Shown here one piece after another: positions 32,920 through 42,223 of a DNA stretch of 64,000 nucleotides; position 1 is the first letter of the stretch, and every line of letters starts with the position of its first letter. The translations under genes and the position numbers were made by a program. The stretch lies in the sequence record OP292222.1. One strand, 5' to 3'. Source of the DNA: Escherichia phage Esco_phi_B-01. Under the pieces are notes generated by a model. It saw nothing but the letters and a program-made list of their open reading frames with translations. It ran no database searches and was not told where the DNA came from.

Positions 32920-34329
32920 ATGGCTTTTACTGTAAGTATAGCCGGCGCTGCGTCTATTAAAATAGGCGAAAGCGCCAACTACACTGCTACCGCAACAGGT
33001 GCAGCTGTAGAAGGAACCGTTACATATGTATGGACCATTGACGGTGCTTCTAATCCGGAGGCAACCAATGTTTTGAAATATACCGGTGTGGCTCCAGCTG
33101 GTAAGAAAGTTTTAAAAGTAGTAGCAACTTCTACTCCAGCCGAAGGCGAACCTGAGGTAGCTGAAAAAACTTTTGAAGTTACCGTAGCTAATAAGACCAT
33201 TGGGGCTCTTTCTTTGACCTTAGACCCTACTTCTGTTTCTAAAGAAATTGGTCAATCCCAAGTTGTTACTGCTAACGTATCGGGTGTCCCTGCTGGCGCT
33301 ACAATTACTTATGTTTGGAAACGTAATACAACTGTAATTTCAGGTCAAACTGGTAAAACTATTACCATAACCGAAGCAGCGGCAGCGAATTACACTTTGA
33401 ACTGTGAAGTTACTGTTACCGCCCCTGAATATGACCCGGCTACAGCTACTAAAGGTATTGCGGTAACTTTTGTTAAGAAAACTATATCAGGCGCTTCCGT
33501 TACTTTAACACCGGCCTCAATTAGTACAGAGAAAGGCTCATCTGCACAGTTTAAAGCGGATGTAGTTGGCGCTCCTTCCGGCGTAAATGCAACTTATTCT
33601 TGGAAGAAAAATGGTTCTATTATTCCGGGCGAAAGCAGTAATACCCTTGCTGTCGATACATCTACAGTAGGTTCTTACACTATTGAAGTTTCGGTAGTCC
33701 TAAAAGGTGCGGATTATAATGATTTAACCGTTACCAAAACCGGAAGTGTAACAATTACTAAAAAGACCATGACAGGTGTTTCTGTTACTTTAGCGCCGGC
33801 CTCTATTAATACTCCGGAAGGAACTCCAGCTTCTTTTAAAGCTACCGTAGCTGGCGCCCCTGCTGGTGCTACTTTTGCATATTCTTGGAAGAAAGATGGT
33901 TCGCCAGTCGCCGGTACCACAGATACTTTAGTAGTCGATACAAGTGCTGAAGGTTCACAGGTTATTGAAGTTTCTGTTGTGGTTTCGGCTACCGACTATA
34001 ATCCTGTGACTGTCAAAAAATCTGGTAATGTAACAATTACGCCTAAAGTCGCTCCTGAACCTGAAGGCGAACTACCTTACGTCCACCCGCTGCCGGTTCG
34101 TAATTCAGCGTATATTTGGGCCGGTTGGTGGGTTATGGATGAAATCCAGAAAATGACACTTGAAGGTAAAGATTGGAAAACTGATGACCCTGATAGCAAT
34201 TATTATCTCCATCGCTATACTCTTCAAAAAATGGTTGCCGATTATCCAGAGGTTGATGTACAAGAATCACGAAATGGAAGAATTATCCATCGTTCGGCTC
34301 TTGACACAGGTATAATTTATTTTTACTAA
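32920..34329 (+). CDS. hoc: Hoc, highly immunogenic outer capsid protein
   Basis: 469 aa; four Ig-like repeats plus C-terminal capsid-binding domain (PEPEGELPYVHPLP...WWVMDEIQKMT.EGKDWKTDDPDS.YYLHRYTLQKM) matching T4 Hoc. Confidence 0.88.
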   Translation: MAFTVSIAGAASIKIGESANYTATATGAAVEGTVTYVWTIDGASNPEATNVLKYTGVAPAGKKVLKVVATSTPAEGEPEVAEKTFEVTVANKTIGALSLTLDPTSVSKEIGQSQVVTANVSGVPAGATITYVWKRNTTVISGQTGKTITITEAAAANYTLNCEVTVTAPEYDPATATKGIAVTFVKKTISGASVTLTPASISTEKGSSAQFKADVVGAPSGVNATYSWKKNGSIIPGESSNTLAVDTSTVGSYTIEVSVVLKGADYNDLTVTKTGSVTITKKTMTGVSVTLAPASINTPEGTPASFKATVAGAPAGATFAYSWKKDGSPVAGTTDTLVVDTSAEGSQVIEVSVVVSATDYNPVTVKKSGNVTITPKVAPEPEGELPYVHPLPVRNSAYIWAGWWVMDEIQKMTLEGKDWKTDDPDSNYYLHRYTLQKMVADYPEVDVQESRNGRIIHRSALDTGIIYFY

Positions 34330-34341
34330 TTTTGGCTAAAT

Positions 34342-34375
34342 AAAAACGGGAGAGCGAAAGCTCTCCCGTTTTGTT
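34342..34375. terminator. bidirectional terminator between convergent hoc genes
   Basis: AAAAA-CGGGAGAGC-GAAA-GCTCTCCCG-TTTTGTT. Confidence 0.85.
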
Positions 34376-35234
34376 ATATGACATTTAATGTCAGGTGCTT
34401 CCTATTCAAAATATACCCATTTCTTGATTCCTGTATTTCTACATCAGGATATCGTGACAAAAGTTCTGCCACTTTTGCGAGCTCACACTTATACCTAAAA
34501 TTGCTATCTTCTATATTGATAGCCCAATCCTGGTTTTTATCAAGGGCACCTTTTATCTCATCCAACACCCACCAGCCTATCCACATGTGGGCCCTATTTC
34601 GGCCACCTGGATAAGACAAATACTGATTTAAATCATGTGAGTATATAAATGGACACACTTCAGGTTCAGGTAAATCACCATCCATAGGCATAATATCTAC
34701 CGTAACTATATCATGATACGGATTATAAGCACCTTCGGCTGTGGCAGAGACATTAAGAGAATATGTCCCATACATAGAAGGCTTTATATCAACATCTAAA
34801 TCCTTTACATTTGAAACCATTTTATCATATTTCCACCATTCACACTCTACTTCGGCCCAGGGTGTGGTACCCATAGAAATTAAAGGTTGTAAAGAAACTT
34901 TTTGACCTATTTCAGCCTTTATGATAGCATCTAAATTTTCTATGGAAATAACTATATCTCTAGGCTCTATCCCGATTTCCAAAACAAAATCTTCGCTTTG
35001 AAAAGTCTCTTGTGTTAGCTTATCAGTGGCTATCGCATAATAAGTCCCTGCTGCAGGAAACCCTACATCCCAAAGATTTAGATACATCGGGTCTTCTTTA
35101 TCTAATAATGGAACGTTTACACCGTTTTTGTACCATTTTATATCGACATCGGTTAAAGATTCAGATAAAACAGCCCTAAGAGTTACCGTTCTCCCAACCA
35201 ATTCATAATGAGGTCCATTTACTTGTATAGACAT
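34374..35234 (-). CDS. Hoc-like paralog
   Basis: 286 aa; C-terminal domain shares the Hoc capsid-binding signature (WIGWWVLDEI, YPDVEIQESRNGYI); SD GGAGG. Confidence 0.75.
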   Translation of the reverse strand: MSIQVNGPHYELVGRTVTLRAVLSESLTDVDIKWYKNGVNVPLLDKEDPMYLNLWDVGFPAAGTYYAIATDKLTQETFQSEDFVLEIGIEPRDIVISIENLDAIIKAEIGQKVSLQPLISMGTTPWAEVECEWWKYDKMVSNVKDLDVDIKPSMYGTYSLNVSATAEGAYNPYHDIVTVDIMPMDGDLPEPEVCPFIYSHDLNQYLSYPGGRNRAHMWIGWWVLDEIKGALDKNQDWAINIEDSNFRYKCELAKVAELLSRYPDVEIQESRNGYILNRKHLTLNVI

Positions 35235-35245
35235 GCTACCTCCAA

Positions 35246-36253
35246 TTAATAAGGGAAACTAACCATTTTAACCAATATAGGTTTATTAGAATCTACACTG
35301 CGCCCGTGTTGAAATACCGTTATTTCTGAAATTGTTTTAGAACCCCATTCCTTTAAGGTTATATTAATAGGACGTAGCCCGTTATATGCCGCACTTACTA
35401 TAACAAATGAGCCTGTAGGAGACAAAGTCTTAGTTCCGCCACCGGTAGTAACCGTTCCACCCGAAACACTAGGAGCAACAAAGTGATAATCACAATATCG
35501 GGTAGTCCCACCTTTACTTAAAATGCTGTATTCTATTTGGTTGTTAACCAATCTAACTCTAAGAACCGTATTGGCGACCCCAGGTATTTTTATTTCGCCG
35601 TACCCAGCAGCAACGTTGGTATACTTATGGAATGAAAACAAATCTGTACCATCTTTACCAGGTTCGCCTTGAGGACCCTGAGGACCTAGAGGGCCAGTAG
35701 CTCCGTCAAGTCCATCAATCCCATCCACCCCAGGAGGACCTTGAACACCTTGCGGACCCTGCTCACCATCTTTACCCGGGATACCCTGTTCGCCTTGTGC
35801 ACCCTGAGAAGCCAATAAGGCCCAGTAAAGGCTGTTTTCTTCAGCAGGATTATTACCGGTAGAATCCTGAACGCAAAAATAAGAAGCCCCATTGTACCCT
35901 ACTGCATCATCCTTAACATAGGCTGTTGCAGCACTCCATGTTCCTTTCCAATTTAGACCCACAGGGCCTACAGGACCAGCCGGGCCTCTCGGTCCTACAA
36001 TGCTTTCACCTTTAGGGCCAGGGATACCAGGGGATAACATTTCTTCGGATATCCCCAAATGAGCCAGAACTTCAGCTCTTCCGGATTTACTAACCAAGCC
36101 TAAGCCATACGAATTACTCCCTACCAATCTTGCCGGGTTTATAAGACTTTCTTTAGTAAGAATTTTTTCAAAAGGGATAACAGTATCCGATTCCTTTAAA
36201 GCAATACCGGAAAAGGTCCCTCGACCGTCATGACCAAAAATAGAATCTGCCAT
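35246..36253 (-). CDS. collagen-like repeat protein with CBM5/12-like motif
   Basis: 335 aa; uninterrupted 17-triplet Gly-X-Y run and a shorter run; between them WKGTWSAATAYVKDDAVGYNGASYFC..YWALL resembles a chitin/carbohydrate-binding module. Confidence 0.75.
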   Translation of the reverse strand: MADSIFGHDGRGTFSGIALKESDTVIPFEKILTKESLINPARLVGSNSYGLGLVSKSGRAEVLAHLGISEEMLSPGIPGPKGESIVGPRGPAGPVGPVGLNWKGTWSAATAYVKDDAVGYNGASYFCVQDSTGNNPAEENSLYWALLASQGAQGEQGIPGKDGEQGPQGVQGPPGVDGIDGLDGATGPLGPQGPQGEPGKDGTDLFSFHKYTNVAAGYGEIKIPGVANTVLRVRLVNNQIEYSILSKGGTTRYCDYHFVAPSVSGGTVTTGGGTKTLSPTGSFVIVSAAYNGLRPINITLKEWGSKTISEITVFQHGRSVDSNKPILVKMVSFPY

Positions 36254-37662: not shown

Positions 37663-37690
37663 AAAGGGACCTTACGGTCCCTTTTATTTT
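37663..37690. terminator. bidirectional terminator between rnlB and the gene 24 operon
   Basis: GGGACC-TTAC-GGTCCC hairpin flanked by AAA and TTTTATTTTT. Confidence 0.8.
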
Positions 37691-38964
37691 TCTAGTGGTG
37701 GAAGTTTAACACCAAGATAAGAACTCAACTGGCTTTGGTTAGCCATTTTGTCCATATCAGAGCCATCAATAATGCGGGCTTCTTTATCGTCCTTAGCGAC
37801 GGTATAAGGGTTTGCAGTCAATGCATAACGAGCAAGCAATGCTACTGTAGGTTGTAAGCTTTCCGGGTCAACAATAACCTTAAATTCACCTACTGAAGTA
37901 TCACCTTCTTCATCAACCACATCCAAACCTTCCGTATAAGGCGCATAATATAAAGATGCGACCGTCTGTCCTTCACCCATCTGGGCATTTACACCAACAA
38001 TAACATAATCACATGGACTATTCATATCAGCATAAAGAGGCAGACCATTCTTTAATACACCATAGGCCAATTCGTCTTGGTCTTCCTTTTTCTCAACCCA
38101 ACCGGAAGCGGCGAGAATAGCAGCACAACGAGAACTAGCTACTGCATAAGTCCCAGCGAAAGAAGTTTGACGTTGGACGGCAGAGTTCATCTCACACATG
38201 TAATAATATAATGTACGAGCACGGTCCTGGGCGTTATCGTAACGTGGGTTGGTAAGGTCTAATACACCTTTTTCAGAAACACCTTGGACTTTAAAACGAG
38301 AACTCACCGTAATTAATGACTGTAATACATCCTTATTAATTTCTTCTGCCATTTGGATGCCTAGCAGATTTTCAACGAAATTAGGAGCATTAAACCCGTT
38401 TGATTCTAGGTCCTGGGCTAATTCGACTGTCAATGAAGTTTTCAGTTTACGTGATTTAACTTCAGATTGCCATTTATCAATACGGAAGCCTGCTTCAGCA
38501 ATTTCAGGATGGCCTTGTTCGAATTTAGAAGTAATAGCAGCATCCGATACCATACGAATATGTCCGGCTGCCACTGCTTCAGAAATAACTTCACCGAGGT
38601 CGGTTTCTGTGGTTCCAGCGAAAGGAGATGCTTCTAGAACTTTAAACACCACACTTTCAAACTGGAACATATCGCCGGCTGCATAAGCTGTAGACGAATC
38701 GGCAAATTCAGGAATATTTTCACGTTCCGACATACCAATCTGGCCCGCAAATGTAGCACCACCAAGATAAGTCATTTTGTCGTCAGGGTTAAGTACACGA
38801 ACCCCGTACAGAGCAGCAACAGGTTGGCTTGTTTTTTGTTCAGCAACTAGGGCTTTAAAGATTCGTTTATTAGTTGCTTGGGTGTATGAAAGAAGAGCAG
38901 GACGGCCAACCGAGTTGGCAGCCGTCAATGTGGATTCTTTAATTAGGTCTATAATCTTAGACAT
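37684..38964 (-). CDS. gp24-like capsid vertex protein paralog
   Basis: 426 aa; roughly half identical by eye to the adjacent gp24 (shared blocks RKLKT.LTVELAQD.ESNGF, INKDVLQSLITVS, ANPYTVAKDDKEAR); overlaps gp24 stop. Confidence 0.8.
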   Translation of the reverse strand: MSKIIDLIKESTLTAANSVGRPALLSYTQATNKRIFKALVAEQKTSQPVAALYGVRVLNPDDKMTYLGGATFAGQIGMSERENIPEFADSSTAYAAGDMFQFESVVFKVLEASPFAGTTETDLGEVISEAVAAGHIRMVSDAAITSKFEQGHPEIAEAGFRIDKWQSEVKSRKLKTSLTVELAQDLESNGFNAPNFVENLLGIQMAEEINKDVLQSLITVSSRFKVQGVSEKGVLDLTNPRYDNAQDRARTLYYYMCEMNSAVQRQTSFAGTYAVASSRCAAILAASGWVEKKEDQDELAYGVLKNGLPLYADMNSPCDYVIVGVNAQMGEGQTVASLYYAPYTEGLDVVDEEGDTSVGEFKVIVDPESLQPTVALLARYALTANPYTVAKDDKEARIIDGSDMDKMANQSQLSSYLGVKLPPLEK

Positions 38965-40247
38965 TAATCAGCCTCGTAAATAATTGCTGGAAGTTTAACA
39001 CCAAGCAGATAAGACATATTACTCTGTCCGGCCATTAAATCCATATTGGTGGCATCGATAACACGAGCTTCTTTATCGTCTTTAGCTACGGTGTACGGGT
39101 TAGCGGACAGTGCATAACGAACCATCAGAGAAATAGAAGGCTGTAATGAATCCGGGTCGACAATAACCTTATAAGCACCAACGTGTTCTGGGTCGTCTAA
39201 ATCCAGGCCTTCTGTATACGGGGCATAGAAAATAGAACCGACAACTTCATTACCGCCATAGTTCTCTTTAACACCTACGATAACATAATCCAATGGGCTG
39301 TTAACGTCACAGAACAATGGTAATCCATTCAACAAATAACCATAGGCAGTTTCTGGGAGCCAATTATTATCTTCAGGTCTATGTTTTAACCAGCCAGAAC
39401 CTGCAAGCATTGCAGCCACACGACTTGAAGCCACAACAAACGTACCGGAATAAGAAGTAGTTTTCTGGATTTCAGAATTCATCTCACAAACAATTTCATA
39501 AAGTTTACGTGCAGATTCTGGAGCACTATCATAAGTCAAATCGATGATGCCATTATCAGATACACCCGTAACTTTATAGCGTTTAGATACGGTTATCAGA
39601 GATTGCAGAACGTCTTTATTAATTTCATCTGCCATTACTGTAGCCAGGAGGTCTTCTAAGAATGCAGGGGCGTCGAAGCCATTTGATTCCATATCCTGGG
39701 CCAATTCTACAGTCAAAGCAGTCTTCAATTTACGGGTCTTAACAGGAGCATTCCATTTATTAACCTGGAATACAGCATCAGAGATTTCTACATTACTCGC
39801 TTCGAATTTAGTGGTATGGGCTGCATCAGGAACCAGACGACATGTTAATGACACCAAACCTTCTTGAAGGGCATCAGCCAATCCTGTAGCGCTAGTGGAT
39901 GCGAGTGGGCTTGCTTGAAGAGCCTTATAAACCACATTCTGATACTTAAAGTAGTCACCCTTGGCAATCGCCTGGGCTTTATCTGTGAGTTCTGGGATAG
40001 TTTCACGGTCTTTAGAACCAACTTCACCACCATAAACAGCACCAGTTTGGAAACTGAATTCATTATCAGGGGTAAGATATTTGACACCGTACAATGCAGC
40101 AATAGGCTGACTAGTACGTTGTTCAGCGATGATATCGCGATAAATTAGTTTAGTGGTAGCACGGGTCAAAGCAACAAGATTAGGGCGACCCAATGAGTTG
40201 CTGGTAGTAGTTGTTGACTCGCGCAGTAATTCGTTAATCTTTGCCAT
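38964..40247 (-). CDS. 24: gp24 capsid vertex protein
   Basis: 427 aa; N-terminus matches T4 gp24 (MAKINELLRESTTT.SNS.GRPNLVALTRATTKLIY). Confidence 0.9.
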   Translation of the reverse strand: MAKINELLRESTTTTSNSLGRPNLVALTRATTKLIYRDIIAEQRTSQPIAALYGVKYLTPDNEFSFQTGAVYGGEVGSKDRETIPELTDKAQAIAKGDYFKYQNVVYKALQASPLASTSATGLADALQEGLVSLTCRLVPDAAHTTKFEASNVEISDAVFQVNKWNAPVKTRKLKTALTVELAQDMESNGFDAPAFLEDLLATVMADEINKDVLQSLITVSKRYKVTGVSDNGIIDLTYDSAPESARKLYEIVCEMNSEIQKTTSYSGTFVVASSRVAAMLAGSGWLKHRPEDNNWLPETAYGYLLNGLPLFCDVNSPLDYVIVGVKENYGGNEVVGSIFYAPYTEGLDLDDPEHVGAYKVIVDPDSLQPSISLMVRYALSANPYTVAKDDKEARVIDATNMDLMAGQSNMSYLLGVKLPAIIYEAD

Positions 40248-40275
40248 TGCGCTTTCCTTATTGAGGGTATATGTT

Positions 40276-40283
40276 TATTTATA
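40276..40283 (-). promoter_or_regulatory. late promoter for gene 24
   Basis: Minus-strand TATAAATA about 30 nt upstream of gp24 ATG. Confidence 0.6.
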
Positions 40284-40347: not shown

Positions 40348-40614
40348 ATGAACAAATTAAACTTTATCCGTACCACGCTTTCTAACCTTGACAAAGACAT
40401 CAAAGCTCTGGTAGAAAAATTTGGTACCAATCCTAACGGTAATGCAGTTAATGCATTGGTTAAGAAATACGAAGCTCTGGCTTATGAAACCGACTTCTGG
40501 TGGAACGGCGAATACTCTACCCATACCAAAGACAAATATGGTAACTGGCTGAAAATCCAAGAAAATCGTATTGACTTCCGTGATATCATCAACCGTCGAG
40601 TTAAGATTGCATAG
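40348..40614 (+). CDS. hypothetical protein (88 aa)
   Basis: SD GAGGAG; early-type promoter upstream; terminator hairpin downstream. Confidence 0.55.
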   Translation: MNKLNFIRTTLSNLDKDIKALVEKFGTNPNGNAVNALVKKYEALAYETDFWWNGEYSTHTKDKYGNWLKIQENRIDFRDIINRRVKIA

Positions 40615-40627
40615 TACAGAAACAAGA

Positions 40628-40649
40628 ATGGGAGACCGAAGTCTCCCAT
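40628..40649 (-). terminator. hairpin/terminator downstream of gene 23
   Basis: ATGGGAGAC-CGAA-GTCTCCCAT perfect 9-bp stem; U-tract weak. Confidence 0.55.
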
Positions 40650-40663
40650 AATAAGGTTAGGTA

Positions 40664-42223
40664 TTAGATACCTTTAACATAAACGCGACGGAAGTAACCA
40701 TTCAGACCGAGGCTGTTAACGATGTCAGGCATACCGCTCTGAATACGTTTGGTAGGAGCCTGTGCAGACGGGTCAGCGAACGGGTTAATACCGATACCGT
40801 AACGAGTTTTGAAGCCCATTACCGGCTGGAAGTTCTTCGGATCGGAACCGCGCAGTGGGGTAAGTGCAACGTAAGGAGCGTAGTAGATACCTGCGTCCAT
40901 TTCGTTGGAACCTTTATAACCGATGGTGAAGTAATCAGCACGGGCATACTGGTCGATGTAAACGCGATATTTACCACCAAGAACACCGGCAAATACTGCT
41001 TTAGTGGTGTCAACGTTGAAACCTTGACCCAGACCTTGAGCTGCATAACTTACAGAAGTATCAACTGCAGCCAGTACGTTAACTACGTTACGGGAAGCGA
41101 TGATGAAGTTACCAGCACCACGACCGGTCTGACGAGCGATTTCGGCTGCTTCTTTATCAATCTGGAACAGAAGGGCTTTAAAGCTCTCACCGGCCCAACG
41201 AGCACCACGGATATCAATCGGGTCCTGGAAGTCAAACACACCAGCTTTAGCGCCAACGGTGTTGGTCATACCAGATTTACCAACCTGTGCAGAGTAGTTA
41301 ATCCAATCGATAACTTCACGGTTGATTTCGAGCATAATTTCGGTAGCAAGGATACCGGACAGTTCAGCATCTGCATCCATACCGTGTACTGCACGAAGGT
41401 CCTGTGCCAGTTCGATGGAATAGCTTGCTTTCAGCTGACGGGATTTAGCTTCGATAACTTGTTTATCGATACGGAAGCCCATTTCGTTCCACGGGTTATC
41501 CTGAGAACCGTTAAAGCCTTCCTGAAGTTCAGCGATAGAAGTAGCCATACCTTCAGCCAATTCAGCCAGCTGACCAGCTTCCAACAGAGCAGTTACGGCA
41601 ACATCCAGTTTAGCGGCATCAGTAGCAGCAGCATCAACGGTTACGGCTTCAACAGCCTGGAAGTGTGCAGCACCGGTAGCTTCGAAGAAGTGAGAATAAA
41701 TTTTACCAACTTCCAGAACTTTACCTGCAGCCAGTGCTTCAAAAGTCTGAGCAGCGCCCTGACCAGAGAACATAGCGTTCGGAGCATACATCGGGTGGAA
41801 AGCTTCTTTAGCGCCAGCAGCGATAGGGTCTTTACCGTATACTGCACGCAGTGCAAATACCTGGCCGGTAGGGTTATTCAGAGGCTGAACACCACAAATA
41901 TCAAAAGCAATCAGATGAGGAATAGCACGACGAACCATACCCATTACTGCCGGCCCAATCTGAGTTACAGCACCAGAGGTCTGGCCAGCTGCGATATTGG
42001 TAGCATCATAACCGTGGTCACCACCGATTTCAGCTTCGGTCAGGAAAGAACCAAATGCTTCAGAGATTTTTTCGTCACGATATTCAGGAGCGGTCAGAAT
42101 ATCTTGTTCCTGGTTTTCGAAAATTTTAGCGATGATAGCTTGTTTAGAAGCACCAACGATTTCAGGAAGAGCTTCGTTTTCCAGCAGAGCGGACCATTTT
42201 TGAACTAATGCATTCTTTTTCAT
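40664..42223 (-). CDS. 23: gp23 major capsid protein
   Basis: 519 aa; size, position and N-terminal region consistent with T4 gp23. Confidence 0.92.
   Translation of the reverse strand: MKKNALVQKWSALLENEALPEIVGASKQAIIAKIFENQEQDILTAPEYRDEKISEAFGSFLTEAEIGGDHGYDATNIAAGQTSGAVTQIGPAVMGMVRRAIPHLIAFDICGVQPLNNPTGQVFALRAVYGKDPIAAGAKEAFHPMYAPNAMFSGQGAAQTFEALAAGKVLEVGKIYSHFFEATGAAHFQAVEAVTVDAAATDAAKLDVAVTALLEAGQLAELAEGMATSIAELQEGFNGSQDNPWNEMGFRIDKQVIEAKSRQLKASYSIELAQDLRAVHGMDADAELSGILATEIMLEINREVIDWINYSAQVGKSGMTNTVGAKAGVFDFQDPIDIRGARWAGESFKALLFQIDKEAAEIARQTGRGAGNFIIASRNVVNVLAAVDTSVSYAAQGLGQGFNVDTTKAVFAGVLGGKYRVYIDQYARADYFTIGYKGSNEMDAGIYYAPYVALTPLRGSDPKNFQPVMGFKTRYGIGINPFADPSAQAPTKRIQSGMPDIVNSLGLNGYFRRVYVKGI

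Follow-up and report, generated by a model that had tools for sequence, protein, structure and literature searches.

Here we describe a pair of tandem capsid vertex genes in a 64,000-nt stretch of DNA from Escherichia phage Esco_phi_B-01 (OP292222.1), referred to below as the window. Two consecutive ORFs lie on the minus strand, in full agreement with the original prediction: gene 24a (38964..40247), which encodes a 427 aa capsid vertex protein identified as the T4 gp24 orthologue by its ORF, sequence identity, PDB match and tree position, and gene 24b (37684..38964), which encodes a 426 aa second vertex paralog assigned to a distinct conserved subfamily from its ORF, identity, dN/dS and tree position. 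Gene order in the window is 20-67-68-21-22-23-(small ORF)-24a-24b-rnlB, and the arrangement in T4 is likewise. The pair thus has the position of gp24-family genes, 3' of gene 23 (major capsid protein, 519 aa; 40664..42223, minus strand) in the late head-gene cluster and with a late promoter ahead of it.

The promoter is an exact match to the T4-type late box, TATAAATA (40276..40283, minus strand), and is located 29 nt ahead of the 24a ATG. Between the two, a Shine-Dalgarno-like AAGGA (40255..40259, minus strand) can be read from the sequence, 7 nt before the 24a ATG. This box occurs in a single copy between gene 23's own terminator hairpin (40628-40649) and the hairpin that follows 24b, the single terminator of the pair, which bears out the earlier claim that both ORFs share one late promoter. 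The hairpin after 24b is G+C-rich, with a 9-bp stem (AAAGGGACC-GTAA-GGTCCCTTT; 37663..37684, no strand assigned); it lies directly 3' of the 24b stop, is terminator-like on both strands and separates the convergent 24b and rnlB genes.

At the 24a/24b junction, ORF coordinates and sequence agree on a TAATG stop/start overlap (38962..38966, minus strand), as previously proposed. Only one base, 38964, is common to both ORFs: it is the A that closes the TAA stop of 24a and opens the ATG of 24b. A GAGG ribosome-binding site for 24b can be read inside the 3' end of 24a (38972..38975, minus strand), 7 nt from the 24b ATG. This arrangement is typical of translational coupling, and its presence here suggests that 24b translation is coupled to that of 24a.

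Homology between the two products is far above chance, because BLASTP over their full length gave 241/428 identities (56%) and 77% positives with an E-value of 1e-180; all four sequence blocks quoted earlier as evidence of kinship fall inside this alignment. Both proteins also match T4 gp24 over their full length, and far better than they match gp23. The upstream product, originally singled out as the T4 gp24 match, is indeed the closer of the two, with 70.5% identity to T4 gp24 (56.4% for 24b) and an E-value of 4e-199 against residues 1-423 of PDB 1YUE (3e-151 for 24b, in an alignment practically without gaps). Against the PDB gp23 chains, in contrast, both reach only ~1e-11. Each is ~27% identical to the window's own gene 23 product, the more distant paralog of both, and therefore they are of the gp24 type and not additional gp23 copies. 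Pfam PF07068 and PHROG 138 match both proteins; NCBIfam returned no model for 24a or for 24b. The assignment of both ORFs as paralogous gene 24 (capsid vertex) genes is supported, and 24b is not some other known head gene.

An AF2 model of 24b found as its best Foldseek matches the gp24 chains 5vf3_a, 7vrt and 1yue (E-values 3e-36 to 3e-29), with weaker matches to gp23 chains (about 1e-13 to 3e-13). The model adds little beyond the sequence evidence, since its quality is low (mean pLDDT 62.8, dropping under 50 in the N-arm and in several segments of the P-domain). It is too poor for residue-level mapping, and domains were placed roughly, from the gp23 alignment and secondary structure. Taken with the 1YUE alignment, the Foldseek matches of this low-quality model support an HK97-like fold with an insertion domain in 24b.

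T4 gp24 (PDB 1YUE, 5VF3, 7VS5) resembles 24a and 24b in size (426-427 aa for the latter), in its position after gene 23 and in late transcription. The two phages differ in that T4 has one vertex gene, the single copy stated in the original prediction being confirmed, and the window phage two. The window is a Dhakavirus with 97.5% nucleotide identity to phage JS10, in which the two genes are annotated 24a/24b; the difference between them is at the strain level only, and they carry one and the same feature. Other GenBank labels for the pair are 24(1)/24(2), as in VR7, and capsid vertex protein I/II, as in VR5, and in S16 the genes are gp108/gp109. Because GenBank annotates the same genes in JS98 (EF469154), JS10 (EU863409), VR7, S16 and others, including IME08, VR5, ZX14, Klebsiella phage F48 and Kosakonia phage 305, the pair is already known as a genomic feature and is not new. 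The proposed duplication was thus found in related T4-like genomes, but with about 100 relatives already annotated it is not a novelty. It occurs in roughly 90-126 of 1452 T4-like records (roughly 6-9%) and has been present in GenBank annotations since JS98, which goes back, by its citation, to a 2007 paper. In the literature we found no open paper on the pair, nor virion proteomics or a structure of a two-copy phage; the PDB holds T4 gp24 only, with no capsid from a two-paralog phage.

The annotated pairs in JS98, JS10 and others have the same order and orientation as that in the window, with stop and start codons that abut or overlap, and orthologue identities to the window of 73-95% for 24a and 79-91% for 24b. 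Individual values are 94.6% for 24a of JS98 and 90.8%, 84.5% and 79% for 24b of JS98, S16 and F48, respectively. In 15/15 lineages examined, a 24a-type gene immediately precedes the 24b-type gene and the junction between them measures -4 to +1 nt, a pattern that the window follows with its 1-nt overlap. Conversely, 24b was the sole vertex gene in 0/15 lineages, and no such phage or contig was found. Single-copy 24a-type phages, on the other hand, are common, and single-copy and two-copy phages interleave. KIT01, with a Dhakavirus backbone, has one copy of gene 24, as do PM2 and T4; since these phages are viable, 24b is dispensable in some genetic backgrounds. KIT01 DNA aligns to 24a and to the 3' part of 24b, which had raised the suspicion of a 24a/24b fusion by unequal crossing-over. 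Sliding-window protein identity rejected this, the KIT01 gene being PM2/PEi20-type throughout with no switch. A collagen-like gene is not strictly linked to 24b; it is mosaic and present in other phage groups too.

Both copies are under strong purifying selection, as judged from orthologue pairs with dN/dS of 0.024-0.113. For 24b, dN/dS is 0.02-0.09, with orthologues 79-91% identical across genera and saturated synonymous sites. Furthermore, more than 90 GenBank genomes and 8 metagenomic contigs carry 24b as an intact reading frame. Phage genomes often lose tandem duplicates quickly, and one copy is enough for T4, so 24b might have been taken for a duplicate that is redundant and decaying, or for an artefact of annotation or assembly; with such conservation and selection data this reading is refuted, and we give it next to no weight. 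Recent gene conversion as the source of the conserved blocks is also ruled out, because the synonymous differences between 24a and 24b are saturated in every 30-codon window (pS 0.55-1.0).

Phylogenetic analysis placed window 24b in a clade of 27 sequences with 100% bootstrap, an assignment in keeping with its diagnostic residues (below). A second clade, also with 100% bootstrap, unites 24a with the single genes of T4, Mosigvirus, PM2 and CC31 and leaves 24b outside. The trees are neighbour-joining trees from modest samples, and in the larger one the deep branches that order the 24b, Jiaodavirus-type and Acinetobacter-type clades have bootstraps of just 12-30%. The single gp24 of Jiaodavirus is 62% identical to both copies, and its grouping with 24b, at 68% in a small tree, is absent from the larger one. 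Tajima relative-rate counts for 24a and 24b were balanced (e.g. 58 vs 63 with the Jiaodavirus outgroup) and non-significant with 8 of 9 outgroups, giving no sign of acceleration in 24b. As judged from these sequences, the a/b split is older than the divergence of T4 from 24a, because 24b falls outside the 100% clade and shows no rate acceleration; the same tests and topology rule out 24b as a fast-evolving recent duplicate. Of the original claim of a tandem duplication of gene 24, the paralogous tandem pair therefore survives and the recent origin from a T4-like gene 24 does not.

The more likely histories are that the single-copy state of T4 is a loss or that 24b is a captured divergent allele. 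The pair did not originate recently within Dhakavirus: either an ancient duplication was followed by loss in the lineages that have one copy, T4-type phages among them, or T4-like phages that shared a host cell recombined unequally and left an ancestral phage with a divergent gene 24 allele in tandem. The tree result modestly revises the common view of a duplication in JS98-like phages.

A hallmark of the gp24 family is the removal of an N-terminal decapeptide by the gp21 prohead protease, with a cut after Glu10 in an L/I-x-E context. The N-terminal L-x-E↓S site of T4 gp24 (arrow, cleavage point, predicted for 24a and 24b), cut after residue 10 (PMC9958956), is identical in 24a (MAKINELLRE↓STTT), and the L/I-x-E↓S motif is kept in 24b (MSKIIDLIKE↓STLT). 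Indeed, L/I-x-E-S occupies residues 8-11 in all 27 sequences of the 24b clade. T4 gp24, 24a and 24b also all have Arg and Ala at the positions aligned with gp23 N381 and N384, the sites at which gene 23 mutations bypass the need for gene 24 in T4 (PMC10580926).

Against this shared background, the 24b clade has 18 diagnostic sites (e.g. L25, S26, N32, R34, F36, R56, V57 and G68, with residue 203 among the others), and its diagnostic substitutions are concentrated at residues 25-68. Compared with T4 gp24, 24b has 13 derived subfamily-specific substitutions, 8 of the 13 within this segment, as well as two insertions of 3 residues each, one after residue 238 and one near residue 349, both of which T4 gp24 and 24a lack. 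Divergence between 24a and 24b as a whole peaks at residues about 61-150 and 271-334. The earlier description of the downstream ORF as diverged at the N-terminus and internally thus holds for the internal segments but not for the N-terminus specifically.

Considering all of these features, we favour the explanation, which we hold to be probable though by no means certain, that 24a is the T4 gp24 orthologue and 24b an old second vertex subunit made along with it. In this scheme, both genes would be transcribed late as a single unit from the one TATAAATA promoter, with the TAATG overlap tying translation of 24b to that of 24a, so that the two proteins would be made together in a fixed ratio. The 24b protein would enter the prohead with 24a, be trimmed by gp21 as gp24 is, and share the head's 55 vertex positions (11 pentamers) with 24a. 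Each protein could form homopentamers of its own, at vertices of the prolate head that are not equivalent, or the two could mix within pentamers. A structural role is the most likely one for 24b, as far as its sequence can tell, because 24b preserves the gp24 architecture in full along with the L/I-x-E↓S site near its N-terminus; its incorporation into the virion, its processing and its stoichiometry are inferred. The earlier idea of heterogeneous or specialised vertices is a reasonable hypothesis.

The concentration of diagnostic substitutions in the N-terminal arm (residues 25-68) also bears on a different role, in which 24b is an assembly-only or regulatory paralog, absent from the mature head. 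It might be a transient occupant of prohead vertices, an aid to gp21 nucleation or activation, or a decoy for capsid-sensing host defences. In HK97-fold proteins the N-terminal arm region touches neighbours and scaffold, and a gene that never occurs by itself and that some viable lineages have lost has the look of an accessory. Attachment of T4 gp24 to prohead vertices is, moreover, thought to trigger protease activation (PMC9958956). However, the gp24 sequence is complete in 24b across every domain, with the surface insertion-domain region present and the C-terminus too, and purifying selection on 24b matches that on 24a in strength. Conservation of the whole shell-forming architecture would be unexpected in a factor that acts transiently, and the T4 literature consulted offered no precedent; we therefore regard an assembly-only role as unlikely.

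Slightly less credible again is the idea that the two proteins are interchangeable, each able to build all 11 vertices alone, and that the pair provides robustness when temperature, pH or host differ, or when one variant is the target of host factors. The strong effect of T4 gp24 on capsid stability to acid, heat and proteases (PMC10580926) would fit such a role, as would the vertex-type residues and protease site present in both copies and the abundance of single-copy 24a-type phages. If either copy sufficed, though, loss of either would be expected, and yet none of the 15 lineages has kept 24b by itself. The tight, long-conserved coupling of stop and start codons points to co-production rather than alternative use, and with one promoter common to both genes the phage has no means of expressing them differentially.

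Within the preferred explanation of a co-made second subunit, a more specific version is possible but tentative: both proteins would be present in the mature head and non-interchangeable, forming different vertex classes or obligate mixed pentamers. In the prolate capsid the vertex classes in question would be the apical vertex and the two rings of five, together the 11 non-portal vertices. If so, the 24b-specific changes in the N-arm would fit different neighbours or an extra vertex-attached decoration, the pair would be a clear case of paralog vertex specialisation in a tailed phage, and the single-gp24 head of T4 would be a secondarily simplified state.

There is a parallel within the same capsid, the T4-like vertex protein having itself been derived from the major capsid protein by duplication (PMC9958956). 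The gp23/gp24 and 24a/24b pairs are alike as tandem duplications of capsid-shell genes with each copy kept under selection; they differ in that gp23 and gp24 share about 20-27% identity and play distinct roles, in hexamers and pentamers respectively, whereas identity between 24a and 24b is 56%. For large prolate capsids the reference model is T4 head assembly, and capsid stability is governed by gp24. Because two vertex proteins have long been kept under strong selection in them, the two-copy phages are a ready-made natural experiment, from which one could learn what specifies a vertex and whether a prolate head can build its non-equivalent vertices in different ways.

The arrangement around the two vertex genes in the window, with portal gene 20, 67, 68, protease gene 21, scaffold gene 22, 23, a small plus-strand ORF, 24a, 24b and a convergent rnlB in that order, is the head-gene cluster of T4. 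As originally predicted, 24a (38964..40247, minus strand, 427 aa) and 24b (37684..38964, minus strand, 426 aa) are consecutive homologous ORFs, with 241 of 428 positions identical in an end-to-end alignment (56%; 77% positives; E 1e-180), and both match Pfam PF07068 and PHROG 138. The overlap that had been noted at TAATG amounts to a single base, which ends the TAA stop codon of 24a and begins the ATG of 24b. The product of gene 23 (40664..42223) is ~27% identical to each. Between gene 23 and 24a, on the opposite strand, lies an ORF of 88 aa (40348-40614, plus strand; PHROG 6003), which is also kept in JS98 (orf173), VR7 and KIT01; a segD-type homing endonuclease is found at its position in T4, Ursula, IME-CF2 and Kimel.

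The assignment of both copies as paralogous vertex genes was correct, with each matching gp24 far above the gp23 chains. In the PDB search, gp24 (1YUE) was matched at E 4e-199 by 24a and 3e-151 by 24b, and gp23 chains at only ~1e-11 by both; in the copy searched, T4 gp24 and gp23 were the sole solved relatives, and no capsid of a two-copy phage was present. A low-confidence AlphaFold2 model of 24b (mean pLDDT 62.8) gave gp24 chains as the top Foldseek matches (E 3e-36 to 3e-29), with gp23 chains ranking well behind. Identity to T4 gp24 is 70.5% for 24a and 56.4% for 24b; in comparisons with other two-copy phages, 24a shares 73-95% with their upstream copies and 24b shares 79-91% with their downstream copies.

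The two genes appear to share one late promoter, as had been proposed, since the box TATAAATA at 40276-40283, 29 nt 5' of the 24a start codon, is the only one between the hairpin terminator at the end of gene 23 (40628-40649) and the end of 24b. AAGGA and GAGG lie 7 nt before the ATG codons of 24a and 24b, respectively. Directly 3' of the 24b stop codon, facing the convergent rnlB, is a G+C-rich hairpin with a perfect 9-bp stem (37663-37684), for which either strand gives a terminator score, so that it is probably bidirectional.

The pair is not new, being already annotated and widespread. A 2.8-kb segment of the window is 97.5% identical to phage JS10, which makes the phage a Dhakavirus, and 97.6% identical to the unannotated phage Ec2-ASingh. 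In GenBank the genes are designated 24a/24b in JS10, JS98 and IME08, 24(1)/24(2) in VR7, and capsid vertex protein I/II in VR5, VR20, VR25 and CGG4-1; two head vertex proteins are annotated in S16, STML-198, Melville, Bp7 and QL01, as well as in Klebsiella phage F48, Enterobacter phage ZX14 and Kosakonia phage 305. With 24b as the tblastn query, 1578 match places were found in 1452 phage records, so that at most ~126 records could be two-copy; matches of at least 80% identity, the level of 24b orthologues, occurred in 91 records. The two-copy genera are Dhakavirus, Gaprivervirus, Gelderlandvirus, Kanagawavirus and Marfavirus, and both types are present in Erwinia phage FBB1.

The tandem duplication originally predicted is not a recent event; tree topology and relative rates indicate that it is ancient. 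In neighbour-joining trees of gp24-type proteins (26 and 72 sequences), the 24b sequences form one clade with 100% bootstrap, and 24a falls in a separate 100% clade with the single gp24 of T4, a Mosigvirus, Citrobacter phages Ursula and Merlin, Pectobacterium phage PM2, CC31 and others, leaving 24b outside. Tajima relative-rate counts were balanced with eight of nine outgroups (unique changes in 24a versus 24b were 58 versus 63 with Jiaodavirus and 51 versus 41 with Krischvirus), and therefore the 24b lineage is not simply faster-evolving. The a/b split is older than the divergence of 24a from T4 gp24.

How the split arose can be read in two ways, both of which fit the data: an ancient duplication with repeated losses later on, which would make the single gene of T4 a secondary state, or capture and later exchange of a gene-24 module via recombination among T4-like phages. 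In a gp23 tree, two-copy and single-copy phages are interleaved, with PM2 sister to a two-copy Kanagawavirus pair, Ursula sister to S16, F48 basal, and single-copy KIT01 nested in Dhakavirus. KIT01 (AP019521; locus L011), classified as a Dhakavirus, has a gp23 96% identical to that of the window and one gene 24 that is PM2/PEi20-like over its whole length (closest to Pectobacterium phage PM2 and Edwardsiella phage PEi20), and is an example of gene-24 module replacement within a genus. The deep order of the 24b, Jiaodavirus-type and Acinetobacter-type clades is poorly supported (bootstraps 12-30%). The distribution of a DprA-like gene (loci L004, L005, L006, L009, L010, L012 and L017) adds to the evidence that the stretch from gene 24 to rnlB is variable: the DprA-like gene lies between gene 24 or 24b and rnlB in S16, F48, KP185, X20, Ursula and phiP4-3, probably also in PM2, where the ORF carries just a hypothetical-protein annotation, and is absent there from the window, JS98, VR7 and T4.

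In all contexts inspected, which were the window, six genera from GenBank and eight lineages from metagenomes, a 24b-type gene lies immediately 3' of a 24a-type gene, with a stop-to-start spacing of -4 to +1 nt; no solitary 24b-type gene was found among them, and solitary 24a/T4-type genes are the rule. The 24b proteins of the metagenomic lineages are 66-77% identical to that of the window, and the partner 24a-type genes come from several subclades, the tree members P0047, P0086 and P0066 being with the CC31/T4-type, with the PM2-type and basal, respectively. The absence of solitary 24b genes from these contexts and the conserved stop/start coupling weaken the proposal that the two are interchangeable alternative vertex proteins.

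Nei-Gojobori dN/dS values between orthologues were 0.018-0.113 for 24a and 0.024-0.090 for 24b (window versus JS98, 0.064 and 0.058; versus VR7, 0.079 and 0.063), ratios which indicate that selection maintains both genes and exclude 24b as a decaying duplicate. When 24a and 24b of the window were compared with each other, all 30-codon windows had a synonymous proportion of differences between 0.55 and 1.0, so that the conserved blocks are attributed to constraint on the protein; recent gene conversion as their source was rejected. Non-synonymous divergence is greatest at residues ~61-150 and ~271-334 and least at 166-240 and 365-409; from the gp23 alignment and model secondary structure, residues ~61-150 were judged to be the E-loop and insertion-domain region.

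The pair raises the question of how one head would use two vertex proteins. Our search of the open full-text literature, with the original JS98 paper outside its scope, found neither a paper that discusses 24a and 24b together nor virion proteomics of any two-copy phage. The prohead protease removes the first 10 residues of T4 gp24 (PMC9958956); the N-terminus MAKINELLRE/STTT (slash, T4 cleavage site) is identical in 24a, and the 24b counterpart is MSKIIDLIKE/STLT. L/I-x-E-S at residues 8-11 is kept in 27 of 27 proteins of the 24b clade, x being variable there and a nearly invariant Arg in 24a-type proteins. Asn-to-Ser changes at gp23 N381 and N384 let gp23 replace gp24 (PMC10580926); T4 gp24, 24a and 24b alike have Arg and Ala at the aligned positions. 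In the best-supported reading, 24b would serve as a second structural subunit of the vertex, transcribed together with 24a and translationally coupled to it; it would enter proheads, be trimmed by gp21 like gp24, and share the 55 vertex positions with 24a. A rival reading would give 24b an assembly-only or decoy role. Eighteen sites are diagnostic, at least 90% conserved within each clade and different between them; 13 of the 18 are derived in 24b, and eight fall between residues 25 and 68, which make up the N-terminal arm and the first strand of the E-loop. Two insertions of 3 residues each, one after residue 238 and the other near residue 349, are further features of 24b. With the 24b-specific changes so concentrated in the N-arm, contacts with neighbours or scaffold may be altered.

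Nearby, a collagen-like ORF with G-X-Y repeats (35246-36253, minus strand, 335 aa) is 99.7% identical to the JS10 "tail fiber-like protein"; next on that strand comes a short Hoc-like ORF (34374-35234, 286 aa) with a C-terminal ...QESRNGY... capsid-binding motif. In five metagenomic T4-like lineages (L022, L023, L026, L027 and L028), this two-gene cassette lies immediately 3' of 24b, the collagen-like proteins being 42-48% identical across their first 180 residues. Mosaic in make-up, the collagen-like protein has an N-terminal part common to Erwinia phages Cronus and IT22 and Aeromonas phage 65, and a C-terminal part common to VR25/VR26 and to proteins annotated as tail fibres in smaller, unrelated genomes of coliphages (records of 45-50 kb); it may be a head fibre or decoration. 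Convergent with the short Hoc-like gene is another (32920-34329, plus strand), whose 469-aa product contains several Ig-like repeats; both proteins terminate in the conserved capsid-binding domain of Hoc, with its ESRNG motif. Phages PG7 and Muldoon have each been described as having two Hoc-like proteins (PMC10385173).
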